From NCBI GenBank assembly GCA_965221935.1, contig CBDCSZ010000063.1:57764-121763 (forward strand): a DNA stretch of 64,000 nt, given 5' to 3'. Below the pieces are notes generated by a model, which searched no databases, had not been told where the DNA came from, and saw nothing but the letters and a program-made list of their open reading frames with translations. Every line of letters starts with the position of its first letter. The stretch's first letter is position 1. Positions 11,379-19,739 of the stretch are shown in pieces. Position numbers and translations under genes: made by a program. This DNA comes from Paracoccaceae bacterium (GTDB lineage: Bacteria > Pseudomonadota > Alphaproteobacteria > Rhodobacterales > Rhodobacteraceae).

Positions 11379-13226
11379 GCTGAATCCAAAGGTTCTGCCC
11401 GGACTTACTGCAACACCGGAACACGCTGATGGCAGATCGGTGCTTGAGTGGTTTGACGGCCGGATCGCGTCGGAATCCCGGCTCGGGGATGCGCTGGATC
11501 AGGGCCTGCTCTGCCCGTTCCATTGCTTCGGCGTGAACGACCCAACGAATTTCGCAGCGGTGAAATTTCAGCGGGGCCGCTACGTTGCGGGACATCTCGA
11601 CGATGTTCTCACCAGCGATCACGCGCGGGCACTGAGAATCCGGCAGGCGGTCGAGAGACTGGTGACCGATCCCAACCGGATGCGCGCCCTGGGCTCTTGC
11701 GTCGGAGTTTGGCATGCGCGCTTCATGGCAAAATATTTTGGCCGTGCCGGCTACCCGTCGGGTGCACTCGACGCCAATTCGCCGACCGAAGATCGCCGCG
11801 CGTCGCTGACGCCGCTGCGGCAAGGCAAAATTCGCGCGATCTTTGCTGTCGATTTGTTAAATGAAGGTTTGGACCTGCCTGAGGTGGACACCGTGTTGAT
11901 GCTTCGTCCGACCGAAAGTGCCACAGTGTTACTACAGCAACTCGGGTGGAGATTGCGATGGGCCGAAGGCAAACAGGTGCTGACAGTTCTTGATTTTGTC
12001 GGTCAGGTGCGCCGCAAAAACCGGCACGATGTGCGCTGCCTGGCCATTTTGGGAGGGACCCGGCACCAGGTCAGGACTGCCGTTGAGGCCGACTTTCCGT
12101 CATTGCCGCCGGGATGCGCCCTCAAACTTGATCGTCAAGCCAAGGACTGTGTCCTGAAGAACCTGCGGGAAGCGGTGGTAAACTTCCGGCAGCGCCTTGC
12201 CGGAGAACTGAAAAGACTTGGTTCCGACACACGTCTCGGCGGGTTTCTGCGTTACGCTGGCGTTGAACTTGAGGACTTCTTTTCACGGCCCCAGTCAGGT
12301 CACTGCTTTGCCGATCTTCGCCGGCGTGCAGGATTTTTACCGGCAACCTCTGCCGACGTCCATGACACGCGCTTGCTGCGGACCGTCGGCAGTTGCTTCA
12401 CGTTGTCGACCACGAGCGGCTGGACGCTTGGCGGGACATAGTGCTGACCGATCACGCCGATCCGGTTGGAACGCCGCAAGGCCGCGCCCATCGCCTGGGC
12501 CTCATGTTCTTTTCGTCGCTTGGCGCCCGCCATCAGGCGATTGGCGAGGCTGGCCGGATGTTTGATCTGATACGGCAGCCTGCGGACCTGCACCGTGAAC
12601 TCGGCGATTTCTTTGAGATTCTCGCGGATCGCATCCGGACGGTGTCAGAACCGATGGACGCCAATGGTGAGGTTCCCCGGGCAAGCCACGCGACATATTC
12701 ACTCGGAGAGATCGTTGCCGCCTAAAGGTTCCTTGACAAAAAGGGCGCGCTCCATCTGCCGCAGACCGGGGTCCTGTGGCACGATGCGACGAAGACTGAG
12801 CTGCTGTTTGTCACGCTGGAAAAGTCTGACAAGGATTAATCACCAACAACCCGCTGTGCCGATTGCCCGATTTCGCCGACCCTGTTTCACTGGGAGTCGC
12901 AGAACAGCCCTTCCGCCAATACCCGCACCGGGCGGCGCTATATCCAGCAAAGGCGCCAGGGGACGAATGTCATCCTCCTTGTTCGTGAACGGAAACGGGA
13001 CAGCAGGGGTGAATCCGTCCCCTACCTTTCTCTTGTCCGGGCCCACTATCGCAGCCATAAATCGGAACGGCCAATGAGAATCCTGTGGGAACTCGAACGA
13101 CCGATGCCGGGCTGGCTGAACAGTCTGGAAAAGTGGTTGCAGGCTGAGGATCAGCGACGTGGCATCTGCCGGTCCGCCGCCCGCCTCATGCCCGCTGCGG
13201 CGCGGGTCCCGGAGGCCGACAGTTGA
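11379..13226 (+). pseudogene. DEAD/DEAH-type helicase with C-terminal DUF3427, 5'-truncated and frameshifted (copy 1)
   Basis: Reading starts abruptly at helicase motif III (GLTATPEHADGRSVLEWF). The helicase C-domain follows (IRAIFAVDLLNEGLDLPEVDTVLMLRPTES). The frame then changes at least three times (ORFs 11440..12441, 12393..12725, 12595..13077, then frame 0). The C-terminal strings LFHWESQNS...RRYIQ... and ERPMRILWELERPMPGWL match my recollection of DUF3427 helicases. Confidence 0.7.
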
Positions 13227-14760
13227 CCGTTCCGCCGCCGGTGACCTTCATATCGGAAAGCGTGTGGTCGGCATGCCTCATGCGATGATCCAGCAGCCTT
13301 CTGGTCAGGCGCAGAACTTCGCCGGTATAATCCGGATCGTCCGCGAGGTTTCGGAACTCGCCTTCGGCCGACTGCGTGTCAAACAGCAGCGGCGGCAGGC
13401 CGCCGTTGAAATGCGCGAACCGGTAGCGGTCCTCCTGTATGATCGCAAGATTGGCCTCACGCAGGCTGAGCCCCGTATCCCGCTGCCAGTGCGTCGGGCA
13501 TTCAGGATCGCCAAAGTCCACCTCGGCGTAGGCATAGTCCCGCCAGCCGGACGGGGCCTTTCCCTCCAGCCACGGCAACAGCGACGCGCCGTTCATCGCA
13601 ACCGGCACCTCGCCTGACAACCAGTCGAGAATTGTCGGTGACACATCCACGGATTCCGTAAAGGCATCGAACTGTCTGCCGTTGCGGGACGTGCGCTTCG
13701 GGTCGCGGATTATCAGCGGCACCTGCGATGCGGCATTGTATACCGACCTCTTGCCCCATTGCCGCCGCTCCCCAAGCATCTCGCCATGATCCGCGGTGAA
13801 CACGATCAGTGTGTCGTCGTACTGCCCGGTGTCTTTCAGCAAACCGATCAACCGGCCAACATGATGATCAACTTCACTGGCCAGTCCGTAGTAGACTGAG
13901 CGCATCTCCGCCACATCGCGCGGATCTTCTTCGTCGAGATGGCAATTGAAGTCGCCGATAAAGCCGTTGATCACATCTTGCCCAAGTTCGGAAGCAATAT
14001 ACGGATGGACTGCCGCTTCCGCTTCCGGGGTCTGCATACGCGCCGGCGGCGGAATTTTATCCGCACCGAACATCCGGTTATAGGGTTCCGGGGCGATGAA
14101 TGGCGGGTGCGGTCGGACATAGGTCACGTGCGCCAGCCACGCCTGATCGGTACGGACGGCAAGCTCCCTCATGCATTCATCCGTCAGAAACGCAGTGTCG
14201 CTGTCCTCGGCGCGGTAGAATGCGGGATCGTCCGGGCGCGGCCCGGTTGCCGGATCGAAATCCTGCGGTGTGTAGAAACGGCTGTGCTCAGGCAGATCAT
14301 AGCCCTTGGCTTTCAGATGCGCCCGCCACGCATAATAGTCCGCTTCCAGCTGCATAACCGTGATTTCCTTGAATCCCGGCATCGGTTTTTCGAAGCTCCT
14401 GACCGCCGGATCATTGGGGTGCAGGTTCCGCGGATCGCCGCTGGTGTCGGTGTAACCGAACAGCAATGGCTCATAACCCGATTTCCGCGCTTCGAGCGCG
14501 AGGTTTGAAATGTCCGCGCGCAGCGGCGTGCCGTTGCGCACGGACCGGTGATTCATCGCATAGAGGCCGGTCAGGAGACTGACCCGGGCGGGACCGCAGG
14601 GAACGGTGACCGTATAGTGCCTGCGGAATGTGACGGCATCCTCCATGAATTCCCGCAGATTCGGCAGCACCGCCCGACCGCTGATGGCCGTTTGCAGGCA
14701 GTCCGCCCGAAGCTGGTCCACAACGATGAAAAGGACATTTCCACGATTCTTTTCAACCAT
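13186..14760 (-). CDS. sulfatase-family hydrolase, Cys-type, no signal peptide (phosphonate-monoester-hydrolase-like)
   Basis: ORF 13186..14850. I chose ATG 14760 after AAGGAGA. The N-terminal metal-binding motif is LFIVVDQLRAD. The formylglycine motif is C-G-P-A-R (VPCGPARVSLLTG). Also present: FTADHGEMLG and YVRPHPPF. The N-terminus is not hydrophobic. Confidence 0.85.
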   Translation of the reverse strand: MVEKNRGNVLFIVVDQLRADCLQTAISGRAVLPNLREFMEDAVTFRRHYTVTVPCGPARVSLLTGLYAMNHRSVRNGTPLRADISNLALEARKSGYEPLLFGYTDTSGDPRNLHPNDPAVRSFEKPMPGFKEITVMQLEADYYAWRAHLKAKGYDLPEHSRFYTPQDFDPATGPRPDDPAFYRAEDSDTAFLTDECMRELAVRTDQAWLAHVTYVRPHPPFIAPEPYNRMFGADKIPPPARMQTPEAEAAVHPYIASELGQDVINGFIGDFNCHLDEEDPRDVAEMRSVYYGLASEVDHHVGRLIGLLKDTGQYDDTLIVFTADHGEMLGERRQWGKRSVYNAASQVPLIIRDPKRTSRNGRQFDAFTESVDVSPTILDWLSGEVPVAMNGASLLPWLEGKAPSGWRDYAYAEVDFGDPECPTHWQRDTGLSLREANLAIIQEDRYRFAHFNGGLPPLLFDTQSAEGEFRNLADDPDYTGEVLRLTRRLLDHRMRHADHTLSDMKVTGGGTVNCRPPGPAPQRA

Positions 14761-15220
14761 TGCTGTTCTCCTTGTGATCGGGAAATCGGTTGTGCGCAGG
14801 CTTCCGCAGCCGTCCGGTTCAGTGCCTGAACTGTTTGGAGAAACAGTCAAGCGGATTCTTCAAATCGCCGCAGCTTTGGATATGGATGTGGAGCCCCGGC
14901 GGCAATGCGGTGTCCACGATAAACACGTAACCGCACTGGCAGCCCCCAGGCGATTCTTCCGGTGAGTTGTTTAAACCGATCTTCAGTGCGCCGTGGAAAG
15001 GCGCGTTTTCCTTGTGGGTGCGAAACCCATTCAGCAATTGTCGCTTCGGTTGTTGCGTGATTGGCATGGTTTCCGAGATGTTCAGGATGGATTTCGGCAG
15101 CCGGTAATTTTTGACTTGCAGAGGGCGTGACCGGGGCGTAAAGGGATCGCATTCAATTGGGAATTTTCCCGTGATCTAATCTGGTTTCGGCAAAGCCCCA
15201 TACTCTTGGAGCAAGTGGAG

Positions 15221-15416
15221 CGGGCTCTGCCTTCCGCGAACAAAGGGGCGGGCTCTGCCTTCCGCGAACAAAGGGGCGGGCTCTGCCTTCCGCGAACAAA
15301 GGGGCGGGCTCTGCCTTCCGCGAACAAAGGGGCGGGCTCTGCCTTCCGCGAACAAAGGGGCGGGCTCTGCCTTCCGCGAACAAAGGGGCGGGCTCTGCCT
15401 TCCGCGAACAAAGGGA
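15221..15416. repeat. perfect tandem repeat, 7 x 28 bp (unit cgggctctgccttccgcgaacaaagggg)
   Basis: Unit starts were counted at 15221, 15249, 15277, 15305, 15333, 15361 and 15389. All copies are identical except the last base of copy 7. The array ends inside the GGGAGGA Shine-Dalgarno of the SBP gene at 15425. Confidence 0.97.
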
Positions 15417-15424
15417 GGAATATC

Positions 15425-17470
15425 ATGTTTTCCAGAATCTTTATGATTGGCGCCGCAGCGGTGTTTACGGCCGGCGCCGCATTGGCAGACTGTCCTGCCG
15501 TCACTGTGGCTGACCCAATGGGAGTTCCGGCAGGGGCCTTTCCACAGCAATATGAACTCGCTGAATTCGAAGAGCTTGCCAACTGCAAGTTGACATTCAG
15601 CGCCAACCCGGACATCGCTGCGCTCAATGCCCGGATTCGCGGCAATCCGGAATTGCCGCCCTTGGCGGAGCGGCTTCCGGAAGAGCCCTTGGTCTATGCG
15701 CCGTACCATTCGATCGGGAAATATGGCGGTACGCTCAGAGGGATGTCGAATGCGACAGAATCAGGGACGTCCGACTTTCTGTCAACACGCCACGCCACTC
15801 TGGTCCGATATCTCGACGATCTGCAGACCATCGTTCCGAACGTGGCCAAGAGCTGGGAGTGGAATGATGACTTCACCCAGGTGACGTTCGTCCTGCGCAA
15901 GGGCCACAAGTGGTCCGACGGAGCGCCGTTTTCCGCGGACGATGTCAAGTTCTGGTATGACAACCTGGCGCTCGATCCCAAGGTCATCGCAAGGCCAAGG
16001 TCTGGGTGGCTGGTGGCCGGCGAGAGAATGACCGTGGATGTGATCGACCCGCAGACGGTGCGTTTCAATCTTCCGGCGCCGAAACCGGGACTGCTCGCCC
16101 TCTTCGCGTCTGAGGGATGGGGGGTGTCCTTCCGACCCAAGCACTTCCTCGGCCGGTACCACCCGGATCTCAATCCTGACGCCGACAAGCTGGCGCAGGA
16201 CGCCGGATTTGAAGACGGTCTGGCTGTCCTTGCCGCCTATTACGGCAGTACCGATTGGAACGATTCCCCGTCGCCGCTGCTCAACAGCCCGGATAGGGTG
16301 GCCAACCTGCCGGCAGACGTCGTGCCGACACTGGAAGCGCATATCACCATTTCAGACAGGGCGACCGGCCGGCACTTCGTTGCCAATCCGTATTTCCACA
16401 TTGTCGATACGCAAGGCAACCAGTTGCCGTACATCAACGAGCAGGACGAGGTTTACATCAACGACACCGAAGTCCGGGTCCTGAAACTGATCAACGCGGA
16501 AGTGGACTACAAATCCCAGTCCCTGGAACTGCCGACAGCGCCGCTGCTGCTCGAAAACCAGGAAAAAGGCGATTACACGATCCACTTGAAGCCGGGAATC
16601 GGCGCTCCCAGTTTCTCGTTCAACGTGACGTCGGATGACCTTGAAAAGCGGAAGGTGTTTGGCGACTTCAGGTTCCGCCAGGCAATGTCGGTGGCGATCA
16701 ACCGTGATCAGATCAATGAAGTCGCTTTCTTCGGTCTGGGAACTCCACGGCAGCATATCGGGTTTTCGCCCAAGCCGGACTTCATCGATGACAAGTGGCT
16801 GACCTACTTCACACAGTACGATCCGGACATGGCGAACTCGCTGCTTGACGAGATCGGCATGGTCGACACCGGCGGTGACGGTTTCCGGGAATTGCCGAAC
16901 GGTGAGAAAATCACGCTGAATATTCAGTTTGCGAATCAGGGCATCCCCGTACAGGTCGTCGAACTGGTCGCCAACGACTGGGCCGAAGTCGGGGTGCAGA
17001 CGACCGTCAAGGAAGTCACGCCGGACGAGTACCGGTCGGCACAGTCGGCGAACCTGCTGGATGTCGGGGCATGGGGCCGAGGGGTGCCGCTGGCGCTCAC
17101 TTTGGGCAACAACCAAGAGTGGGTGCCGCCGTTCTCTTCCTATTTCGGCCACCGGCAAGGCATGCTCTGGGGCGAGTGGGTGCAATCTGACGGCGGCGCC
17201 GGCGCTGAGCCGCCCGATTATGCCAAGCAGCTGATGGATGACATAGGCGCCTTCCAGTCCGCGCCGATTGGCTCCGACGAGTTCAAGGCGTTGGGTCAGC
17301 GGATGGTCAAGAACATGACCGAGAATCTGCTGTTCATTGGCACCGTGATTGGGCCGCTGCCGATCTACCATCGAAACGCGCTCAAGAATTTCGTGGAATT
17401 CCAGACTCAAGGCCACGCCTACTACCGGACTTACCCGTATCGCGCGACGCAGTGGTACTTTGACGAGTGA
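15425..17470 (+). CDS. ABC transporter substrate-binding protein, family 5 (Dpp/Opp-like), first gene of operon
   Basis: ORF 15206..17470. I chose ATG 15425 after GGGAGGA. A signal peptide is present (MFSRIFMIGAAAVFTAGAALA). It is a paralog of 268..2301. Confidence 0.9.
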   Translation: MFSRIFMIGAAAVFTAGAALADCPAVTVADPMGVPAGAFPQQYELAEFEELANCKLTFSANPDIAALNARIRGNPELPPLAERLPEEPLVYAPYHSIGKYGGTLRGMSNATESGTSDFLSTRHATLVRYLDDLQTIVPNVAKSWEWNDDFTQVTFVLRKGHKWSDGAPFSADDVKFWYDNLALDPKVIARPRSGWLVAGERMTVDVIDPQTVRFNLPAPKPGLLALFASEGWGVSFRPKHFLGRYHPDLNPDADKLAQDAGFEDGLAVLAAYYGSTDWNDSPSPLLNSPDRVANLPADVVPTLEAHITISDRATGRHFVANPYFHIVDTQGNQLPYINEQDEVYINDTEVRVLKLINAEVDYKSQSLELPTAPLLLENQEKGDYTIHLKPGIGAPSFSFNVTSDDLEKRKVFGDFRFRQAMSVAINRDQINEVAFFGLGTPRQHIGFSPKPDFIDDKWLTYFTQYDPDMANSLLDEIGMVDTGGDGFRELPNGEKITLNIQFANQGIPVQVVELVANDWAEVGVQTTVKEVTPDEYRSAQSANLLDVGAWGRGVPLALTLGNNQEWVPPFSSYFGHRQGMLWGEWVQSDGGAGAEPPDYAKQLMDDIGAFQSAPIGSDEFKALGQRMVKNMTENLLFIGTVIGPLPIYHRNALKNFVEFQTQGHAYYRTYPYRATQWYFDE

Positions 17471-17515: not shown

Positions 17516-17568
17516 TGTCGTGGAAAGGGGGTCGGTCGCCTCAGGGCGATCTGACTTTGGGGAGCCGC

Positions 17569-18570
17569 ATGCAGTTTGCCAGATTCGCTTTCGTGCGCGC
17601 AGTCCTGGCAATCTTCACCCTGTTTATTGTTTCGCTGTTTGTGTTCAGCCTTATGGAGCTCGTTCCCGGCGACTGCGCGGAACGGTACCTTGCGTACAAG
17701 AACACTCAGGGCGCTCCGGTCACGATCGCCGACATTGAATCCGAGCGGATCCGGCTGGGACTGGACAAGCCGTTCATCGTCCGCTGGTCGACCTGGATCG
17801 GCAACGCATTCAGAGGCGAATTCGGCGAGAGCTGTATCCTGCGGGTCAACATCAACAGCCTGCTCGGCGACAAGTTCCTGATTTCGCTCGGGATCTGCAC
17901 GACGTCGCTGGTGCTGTCCTACCTGATCGCGGTGCCGGTGGGCATCCTGTCGGTGACCGCCAACAGCGCGCTGCTCAACAATTCACTGCGCTTCATCAGC
18001 TATCTCGGGCTGGCGCTGCCCAACTTCCTGCTGGCGCTGGTGATCATGCTGTTCTCCACGGTGTATTTCGGCGACAGCATGACCGGCCTCTTCTCAGCTG
18101 AATACCGCGACGCCGAATGGTCATACGGCCGGGTGCTCGATTTCCTGAACCATGTCTGGCTGCCGATCATTATCCTTGGCTGGTCGGCCACCGCCTTCGC
18201 CACCCAGACGGTGCGGGCGCTGATGGCGGACGAGATCAGCAAGCTGTACGTGACCGCGGCGGCTGCCCGCGGCGTGGCCGGCCGCCGCCTGATCCTGCGG
18301 TATCCGGCGCGGCACGCGCTGGGCCCGATCATCAACTCGATCGGATTTGACCTCAACCGGATATTCAGCGACCTGCCGATCGTCGCCTTGATCTTGACGC
18401 TGACGGAATCTGGATTGCTCCTGATCGATGCGCTGGCCAAATCGAACGACCAGCAATTGGCAGGCGCCATCATCTTTCTGATCACCGCCAGCATCATCGG
18501 CCTGAACTTCATCACGGATGTGCTGCTCGCTCTGATCGACCCGCGCATCCGGCGCAGCATCCTGAGGTAA
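17569..18570 (+). CDS. ABC transporter permease (DppB/OppB-like)
   Basis: ATG 17569 follows GGGGAG. The protein is multi-TM and ends with the typical ...DPRIR tail of DppB-type permeases. Confidence 0.9.
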   Translation: MQFARFAFVRAVLAIFTLFIVSLFVFSLMELVPGDCAERYLAYKNTQGAPVTIADIESERIRLGLDKPFIVRWSTWIGNAFRGEFGESCILRVNINSLLGDKFLISLGICTTSLVLSYLIAVPVGILSVTANSALLNNSLRFISYLGLALPNFLLALVIMLFSTVYFGDSMTGLFSAEYRDAEWSYGRVLDFLNHVWLPIIILGWSATAFATQTVRALMADEISKLYVTAAAARGVAGRRLILRYPARHALGPIINSIGFDLNRIFSDLPIVALILTLTESGLLLIDALAKSNDQQLAGAIIFLITASIIGLNFITDVLLALIDPRIRRSILR

Positions 18571-18575
18571 ACGCA

Positions 18576-19739
18576 ATGGCGGACATCGCAGAAGTCAGGC
18601 CGGATGCCGGTCCCGAGGTCGACCAGAAACTCAAGGAAGCGTATTTCACCGCCTCCCAGAGCCAGCTGGTCTGGGCCCGGTTCCGCCGCATCAGGTCGGC
18701 CATGGTTGCGGCGTACATCCTGATCTTCCTGATCACCTGCGGGCTGTTTGCGCCTTTTCTCTCGCCCTACGATCCGACCATCGCCGGCCGGAACAAGGAA
18801 TACCTGAACGGGGCGCCGCAGATCCCCAAATTCTGCGACGAAAACGGCTGTTCATGGCGCCCCTTCATCTACACCTATGAGCGAACGCGGTCGATCAAGA
18901 CCAATTTCCGCTGGGTCACCGAGGTGAACCGGGACAAGCGGCGCTACGTGACGCTGCTGCCGAAGGGATCCGAATACAGGCTGCTCCGGATTCCATTCCT
19001 TTCCTTCGACCGGCATCTGTTCGGCGTGGATCAAGGGAAGATTCACATTTTCGGAACCAATGCCGCCGGCAAGGATATATTTTCCCGGACCCTGCACGCC
19101 ATCAACACCACGCTTGCGGTCGGCACGATCGGAGTGCTGATCTCCTTTGTGCTGGCGCTGATCATTGGCGGCATCTCGGGCTATTTCGGCGGGTTCATCG
19201 ACTCGCTGCTGCAGATGCTGATGGACGCCGTCAAAGTCGTGCCGTCAATTCCCATGATCATGGCCCTGGCGGCGTTCGCCCCGGACGAATGGAGCGCCGA
19301 GACACGGTTCTTTTTCATCGCGGTCATACTTGGCTTCGTCGGCTGGACGACGCTGGCGCGCCGTATCCGGACCCATCTGCTGGCGGAGCGCAACCAGGAA
19401 TATGTGCTGGCGGCGCAGCTGTGCGGAGCATCCTCCGGCCACGTCATCCGCCGTCACCTGCTGCCGAGCTTCACCAGCTACATCATTGTCGACCTGGTGA
19501 TCTCGTTTCCGTACATGGTGCTGGGGGAAACGGCGCTGAGCTTTATCGGCCTGGGCCTCAAGGATCCCGTCAATTCGCTCGGTGTCATGCTGCAGAACGT
19601 CACCAACGCCGACGTGCTGCTGAATTATCAGTGGTATTTCATTCCGGTCCTGTTCTTCATCACCCTGGTGCTGGCCTTCGTTTTTGTCGGCGACGGGCTG
19701 CGCGACGCCGCCGACCCCTACGCGGAAATCCAGAAATAA
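18576..19739 (+). CDS. ABC transporter permease (DppC/OppC-like, long N-terminal extension)
   Basis: 387 aa with a C-terminal ABC transmembrane type-1 region (..LARRIRTHLLAERNQEYVLAAQLCGAS..). It ends with the typical DGLRDAADP tail. The gap from the upstream gene is 5 nt. Confidence 0.9.
   Translation: MADIAEVRPDAGPEVDQKLKEAYFTASQSQLVWARFRRIRSAMVAAYILIFLITCGLFAPFLSPYDPTIAGRNKEYLNGAPQIPKFCDENGCSWRPFIYTYERTRSIKTNFRWVTEVNRDKRRYVTLLPKGSEYRLLRIPFLSFDRHLFGVDQGKIHIFGTNAAGKDIFSRTLHAINTTLAVGTIGVLISFVLALIIGGISGYFGGFIDSLLQMLMDAVKVVPSIPMIMALAAFAPDEWSAETRFFFIAVILGFVGWTTLARRIRTHLLAERNQEYVLAAQLCGASSGHVIRRHLLPSFTSYIIVDLVISFPYMVLGETALSFIGLGLKDPVNSLGVMLQNVTNADVLLNYQWYFIPVLFFITLVLAFVFVGDGLRDAADPYAEIQK

Follow-up and report, generated by a model that had tools for sequence, protein, structure and literature searches.

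The MIRU-VNTR loci and the promoter tandem-repeat loci of Mycobacterium tuberculosis are bacterial intergenic VNTRs, or minisatellites. MIRUs are an interspersed family that occurs at many loci, and some of them carry overlapping mini-ORFs. The locus described here, a 28-bp repeat in the 5′ leader of an ABC importer gene, is like bacterial VNTRs in that its units of tens of base pairs lie head to tail near the start of a gene, are non-coding, are perfect copies of one another and vary between strains. Unlike the MIRUs, its 28-mer is present at one locus only and is made from local leader sequence. Neither dispersal of the unit over many loci nor mini-ORFs with overlapping stop and start codons were found for the 28-bp unit.

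Tandem repeats close to a start codon have been studied in other bacteria, with different consequences. For the 5′-UTR VNTR of clbR, in the colibactin island of E. coli, alleles of 5 and of 19–20 repeats differ by about 2-fold in expression (PMC7364221). Both that repeat and ours lie within a 5′ untranslated region and have a length that depends on the isolate. They differ in organism and in repeat, the clbR effect is transcriptional, and the 28-bp array abuts and partly forms the Shine-Dalgarno sequence (SD). By analogy, we would expect an effect at the present locus to be no larger than the ∼2-fold change at clbR.

At the contingency loci of Neisseria and Haemophilus, among them nadA (TAAA), porA (poly-G) and hifA/B (TA), units of 1–7 bp alter the spacing of the −35 and −10 elements or the number of regulator sites, giving ON/OFF switching (reviewed in PMC3899988). 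Those loci likewise have a slippage-prone repeat upstream of a gene, and there it creates heritable, reversible expression variants. Here, by contrast, the unit has 28 bp, its position is 3′ of the observed RNA 5′ end, and the context of the ribosome-binding site (RBS) stays unchanged; the promoter-spacing and frame-shift mechanisms of contingency loci probably do not apply to it. A third comparison is offered by marine Beggiatoaceae, for which PMC4679880 describes 7-bp intergenic direct repeats, TAACTGA, at 169 loci genome-wide. That paper places them between promoter and start codon and proposes them as post-transcriptional elements, which makes them similar in position to the present array, whereas a 28-bp unit at a single locus sets the array apart from the TAACTGA repeats as they are described there.

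A leader VNTR is therefore an already known kind of feature, and what is unusual about this one is only that expansion recurred at a single site. The window, by which we mean the whole stretch of 64,000 nucleotides that was analyzed, very probably contains a real, slippage-driven VNTR that arose from the gene's own leader, in front of a periplasmic solute-binding protein (SBP) gene, and has at most a small effect on its expression.

Sequence and context of the array

Tandem Repeats Finder (TRF), run on the window, reports a minisatellite of 7.0 copies with a period of 28, 100% matches, 0 indels and a score of 392. The array occupies positions 15220–15415 of the forward strand, in the 5′ leader of the SBP gene. 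Its unit, in the phase given by TRF, is GCGGGCTCTGCCTTCCGCGAACAAAGGG (28 bp), and the copies are perfect and head to tail. Both TRF and a reading of the sequence thus confirm the seven perfect 28-bp tandem repeats that a preliminary description of this DNA had placed before the SBP gene. The units are contiguous with zero spacers, so its statement that this is not a CRISPR array holds, and its view that the array is recent fits copies with 100% identity, since perfect copies imply recent slippage. An array of this kind is far beyond chance. Genome-wide, TRF finds comparable repeats (period 15–60, ≥3 copies, ≥95% identity) at only 5 loci in 5.05 Mb.

The 3′ edge of the array reads ...AAAGGG and is followed directly by AGGAATATCATG. 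This edge falls inside the Shine-Dalgarno sequence GGGAGGA (15413–15419, forward strand), so that the last repeat unit provides its first three G residues. The SD lies 5 nt before the ATG at 15425, where the SBP gene (15425–17470, forward strand) begins. The product is of the SBP_bac_5 (Opp/Dpp/Nik) type (Pfam PF00496 at 1.4e-53), with an N-terminal signal peptide, and the gene is the first of an ABC importer operon; importer permeases (17557–18570 and 18576–19739) and then two ATPases follow, the downstream genes matching PF00528, PF12911, PF00005 and PF08352. To the left is a divergent sulfatase-family gene (13186–14760, reverse strand; PF00884 at 1e-42 plus PF16347), and the spacer between the two genes measures 664 bp, as had been described. 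No match to the sigma-70 promoter consensus was found in 14600–15600. The leaders of paralogous SBP genes in the same genome show no repeat, which agrees with the earlier remark that the paralogous SBP has no such array.

The unit contains no ATG, GTG or TTG and no stop codon, and all six frames are open across the array. A coding role might accordingly be proposed, either as an N-terminal extension of the SBP from an in-frame TTG at 15206 (73 codons), whose frame joins that of the ATG, or as an upstream ORF that runs through the repeats. We find this scarcely credible. There is no SD before 15206 and a strong one before ATG 15425, a signal peptide beginning at the ATG would be internal to the extended protein, and relatives with a single unit use the same ATG. 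Because 28 is not a multiple of 3, any change in copy number would also shift the frame of such an extension. With no start codon in the unit and the real start at 15425, the array is non-coding, as the preliminary description had concluded.

The spacer that holds the array also holds a truncated 5′ fragment of a group II intron (14986–15052, forward strand), which went unmentioned in the preliminary description. It comprises ∼67 nt of domain I, starts with GTGCG and has dispersed matches; the sequence just before it (14969–14985) resembles the insertion-site sequence common to the intron family, and the fragment together with that sequence matches ∼50 other places in the genome. A connection between the array and the adjacent intron fragment was considered and rejected, since L029, a relative with a single copy of the repeat segment, has the same fragment. 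The fragment must therefore predate the expansion and is unrelated to the array.

Locality of the unit and support for the copy number

The preliminary description had proposed a search of the genome for the 28-mer, and this search returned no second site: there were 0 further matches in the genome at up to 6 mismatches, and blastn-short against the genome gave only chance matches of 13 nt. The exact 28-mer was likewise found 0 times in two public contig collections (genome_contigs and metagenome_contigs). A 28-mer that is unique to one locus is not a mobile or dispersed repeat.

The source genome, that of a sponge-associated Paracoccaceae bacterium, is a metagenome-assembled draft of 83 contigs (5.05 Mb, 61.5% GC). 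The organism is uncultured, and the locus was found in runs from sponge metagenomes and metatranscriptomes. Given a draft of this kind, and given that the left flank of the array (15053–15220) is missing from the Logan contigs of the DNA runs, it might be argued that the assembler created the array or its copy number. Several observations make this very improbable. Three head-to-tail, 100%-identical introns of 1999 bp are resolved within one 278-kb contig; since short reads could not resolve tandem identical introns, the assembly appears to be a long-read one, and single long reads would span the 196-bp array. The flank is present at ∼93% identity in run X15 and in L029, and its loss elsewhere may be attributed to graph cleaning, a step likely to discard a short unitig of low depth that has a high-depth repeat on either side.

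Reads bear directly on the array as well. Note that Logan contigs (k = 31) collapse it, so that only the loop unitig and depth ratios are usable. A 58-nt cyclic unitig (28 + 30; all 28 rotations) was found without mismatch in six independent runs (X1, X2, X9, X3, X4 and X5). X1 and X2 come from one sample and X3, X4 and X5 are RNA. At least three sample sets are represented among the runs, and several samples must therefore contain molecules with over two units. The k-mer depths of loop and flank in X1 have a ratio of 23.7/3.9 = 6.0. Setting (L−30)/28 = 6 gives an array length L of ∼198 nt, which fits seven units. Ratios in the other runs range from 2.4 to 4.9 at 2–8x depth and are too noisy for a copy number to be read from them. 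A count of exactly seven should be considered rough, because it derives from the assembly and one approximate depth ratio.

Leader states among relatives

An exact look-up of the SBP protein encoded in the window gave no record. The 90%-identity cluster of this protein has 21 members, mostly on long-read metagenome contigs, and their leaders were compared with that of the window, designated state A, which reads GTGGA-(28 bp)x7-AGGAATATC-ATG. State B is represented by L029 and L036, from two samples. These are the closest relatives found: their SBP is 99% identical and starts at an ATG homologous to 15425, the spacer is colinear at roughly 93–95%, and both the sulfatase neighbor and the intron fragment of the window are present. 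Here the segment homologous to the repeat unit occurs once, in a leader of the form GTGGAG-AGGGCTCTGCCTTCCACAAATAGAGGG-AGAGGAATT-ATG. The native leader is therefore the source of the 28-bp unit. In L036 (3001–5042 of ena:ERZ25072076:ctg243675_3x_l, at 3x coverage) the SBP is split into three ORFs of 455, 120 and 100 aa, either a pseudogene in that strain or the result of low-coverage indel errors.

State C belongs to a third lineage, whose SBP is 96–98% identical. Its leader reads GTGGAG-TGAGCTTTACCTTC- and then has a different unit, CACAAGCGAGAGGAGAAGAAT, of 21 bp, which contains the SD and coincides in part with the 3′ half of the 28-bp segment. Two copies are present in L024, L025, L026, L031/L032, L034 and L035; these copies differ by 1–2 nt, which points to an older duplication. 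L027 (a 5.95-Mb contig labelled circular) and L030 have three perfect copies, and L028 has five, also perfect. One sample (ERZ25069580) holds both L024 (two copies, on a 29x contig) and L028 (five copies, on a 43x contig). L031 and L032 are the same locus found twice, ∼10.8 kb apart, on ena:ERZ21862620:ctg182254c (20,410 bp, labelled circular), which is probably a concatemer artefact of the assembler rather than a plasmid. In state C (seen in L024–L028 and L030) the upstream position of the sulfatase gene is taken by a gene for a HisKA/GAF sensor kinase and by a RelE/MqsA pair. When the region upstream of state C is compared with 15053–15219 of the window, clear homology starts only ∼45 nt before the ATG, at GTGGAG. 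This onset marks a rearrangement breakpoint beside the repeat-prone segment, and the promoters of the two states differ.

Copy number thus varies between strains, as the proposal of a copy-number-variable leader had anticipated, with 1 versus 7 copies of the 28-bp segment and 2, 3 or 5 copies of the sister 21-bp unit. The array combines the features that define a VNTR or minisatellite: a head-to-tail unit in the range of ∼10–100 bp, a difference in copy number between close strains and a non-coding position. Leaders of more distant GTDB relatives (SBP ≤77% identical) do not align with that of the window and are therefore uninformative on the repeat. Runs X12–X20 hold the 21-bp lineage or the CDS alone. 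Four marine metatranscriptomes (X24–X27) contain a form that differs at its N-terminus. In a comparison covering 15515–15800 this form matches the window from 15515 on, but toward its 5′ end (…GCCGACTGCCCGCCAGTCACAGTTGACGAT) it is similar to the paralogous SBP at ∼280 of the window, and it is a paralogue or a recombinant between paralogues.

Across ∼14 near-identical loci, the RBS-proximal segment of ∼45 nt has undergone at least five length changes with two different unit boundaries. From the density of TRF loci in the genome, the probability that one particular 60-bp target contains a second tandem repeat is ∼0.001–0.002. Recurrence at so improbable a target marks the site as a hotspot, either mutational or selected. 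Two independent expansions in one 45-nt segment could reflect selection rather than neutrality.

Transcription of the leader

The SBP gene is covered in four sponge metatranscriptomes (X3–X6). The sulfatase gene and positions 15074–15175 are without RNA cover in these data, which identifies the signal as RNA rather than DNA contamination. A contig of 1558 nt from X3, which is a random-PCR library, matches the window with 0 mismatches over 15179–15219, a unique leader segment (forward strand) on the 5′ side of the array that is conserved in L029 and L036, and then continues through one repeat unit into the CDS. Its continuity shows that the SBP gene and the leader on the 5′ side of the array share a transcript, and the array lies in the 5′ leader of that gene, where the preliminary description had put it. 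With the observed RNA 5′ end (15179 or upstream) on one side and the SD on the other, the array is not part of the CDS and seemingly not part of the core promoter either.

The X3 contig presents a one-unit form of the window's own allele. This single RNA contig could correspond to a real allele or to a template-switch product of RT/PCR. The depth of the loop unitig in RNA is 0.5–1.0 times that of the CDS, where ∼6 times would be expected for seven fully transcribed units. Only a minority of the RNA molecules there would therefore have leaders with many units.

These positions also bear on the suggestion that the repeats are regulator sites, with a near-palindrome in each unit. According to such a scheme, a transcription factor would bind TTCCGCGAA in every unit and copy number would set the strength of repression or activation. 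One TTC-N3-GAA per unit, at a regular spacing of 28 bp (∼2.7 helical turns), is what an operator array would look like. However, only the outer TTC...GAA of TTCCGCGAA match, and it is not a true palindrome; single-copy segments do not have the motif, the sequence there being TTCCACAAA in L029 and L036 and TTCCACAAG in the third lineage; its position is 3′ of 15179, where the RNA 5′ end was seen; and no regulator gene is adjacent. The suggestion is weakened to the point that we give it very little credence.

RNA structure and predicted effect on translation

The array folds no better than shuffled sequences (z = +1.56 for RNA and +1.86 for DNA). Searches against Rfam gave no match at gathering score in the whole window and only chance-level matches at E ≤ 1 in 13000–17000. 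Neither the fold z-score nor Rfam thus indicates a structured cis-regulatory RNA.

The 3′ tail of the 16S rRNA in this genome (…GGATCACCTCCTTTC) has the canonical sequence CCUCCUUUC. Duplexes with this tail have calculated energies of −11.9 kcal/mol for the real SD and −7.5 kcal/mol for the AAGGGGCGGG junction inside the array. The SD-like motif of the 21-mer pairs at −13.2 kcal/mol, that is, at full strength. The series of pseudo-SD sequences that had been suggested for the array therefore stands insofar as the motifs exist, but they are weak (−7.5 versus −11.9 kcal/mol) and have no start codon behind them. A local hairpin can form within each unit between CCUUCC and AAGGGG, and in the last unit CCUUCC has the real SD as a further possible partner (−8.7 kcal/mol).

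Opening the RBS (−16 to +13) is computed to cost 8.35 kcal/mol with one unit, 7.44 with seven and 7.54 with ten, a difference below 1 kcal/mol from one unit to seven, in a thermodynamic prediction that leaves out ribosome standby, RNase and Rho effects. The cost is almost flat because the last unit and the SD are constant at any copy number. This prediction suggests that any effect of the array on expression is probably modest at most. No sign of ON/OFF phase variation, which the preliminary description had considered, was seen in these data.

The expansion very probably ran as follows. A 28-nt piece of the leader immediately 5′ of the SD was duplicated in tandem, and expansion to seven identical copies then proceeded by slipped-strand mispairing or by unequal exchange between copies. 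The array is transcribed within the leader of the SBP mRNA, with pyrimidines (CCUUCC) and a weakly SD-like run of purines (AAGGGG) in every unit, able to pair with one another. Each step of expansion would add a 28-nt module and leave the immediate ribosome-binding context unaltered, and the consequence for expression would be either neutral or a slight adjustment by way of leader length, mRNA stability or ribosome standby. A small effect is to be expected because the last unit and the real SD remain unchanged whatever the copy number.

The chief competitor to this slippage-driven, near-neutral account is that translation or mRNA stability of the binding protein is tuned as SD-like leader modules are gained and lost, and that both lineages came to expand this segment because it is adaptive in the sponge host. 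We judge this unlikely, though it keeps some probability since expansion has recurred at one place and both units have SD-like content. Two different units (28 bp and 21 bp) have expanded at a homologous RBS-proximal segment against the low probability given above, with at least five length changes over ∼14 contigs. Both kinds of unit contain an SD-like motif (a weak one in the 28-mer, one of full strength in the 21-mer), the SBP gene is expressed in sponge metatranscriptomes, and a shift of about 2-fold has been reported for the clbR 5′-UTR VNTR in E. coli (PMC7364221). Against these points, the predicted accessibility of the RBS is nearly independent of copy number, and the depth of the loop unitig in RNA does not suggest abundant long leaders. 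The genome is host-restricted and rich in introns, IS elements, duplications and pseudogenes, which fits drift, and a purine-rich mutational hotspot explains the recurrence equally well. A more specific form of the idea, in which the last ∼45 nt would be a translation rheostat under diversifying selection in the host, with the number of modules setting the recruitment or decoying of ribosomes, is a reading of the sequence that we hold to be doubtful and less probable again. It builds on the independent expansion of SD-like modules in two lineages of one sponge symbiont (28 bp x7; 21 bp x2–5) and on the difference in copy number between strains that co-exist in one sponge.

Ordinary in itself as a leader VNTR, the locus provides a clean natural allele series in front of near-identical genes, with one unit present once or seven times and another two, three or five times. 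This series, found partly within one sample, is well suited to testing whether RBS-proximal minisatellites change translation. The array could also serve as a strain marker for the sponge-symbiont population in long-read metagenomes.

Introns and other repeats in the genome

The dispersed element represented beside the array by a fragment is a group II intron family. Its full copies start with GTGCG and score above the gathering threshold (GA) of two Rfam models, RF02003 (group II D1-D4; 59–79 bits, GA 49) and RF00029 (42 bits, GA 40), and an ORF of 446 aa lies inside the 1999-bp copies. About 50 intron 5′ ends and ten full-length copies of 1999 bp were counted genome-wide. Sites include C46:77327–83323, C46:101859–109308, C61:16324–20410 and C58:9527–11750, in addition to 14986–15052 of the window. 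Intron copies abut without an exon between them (…GACTCTAC joined directly to GTGCGCC…), including the three 100%-identical copies in a row, and tandem 719-bp derivatives that lack the ORF are also present. Tandem arrays of intron after intron are unusual.

A second strong non-coding minisatellite is located at C67:105821–106024 and consists of 9.2 copies of a 22-bp unit (CGCTCAGGGGGGCGTCCACATA, 98%). The reverse complement of this unit and its flank is found at C9:∼51655, at a point where an intron copy is truncated, and the CGCTCAGGGGGGCGTCCACATA minisatellite could have come from the terminal part of another mobile element. A different 22-bp unit, GCCGGAATCTTGGTCAAGTGTC, forms arrays of 4–5 copies at about ten loci, in both orientations and often paired ∼2.8 kb apart (C36:116286, C36:119120, C33:5302, C46:273029, C77:152108 and C77:154970, with further loci at C3:395, C77:154, C33:180 and C71:32524). 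The GCCGGAATCTTGGTCAAGTGTC arrays look like the terminal repeat blocks of a transposable element.
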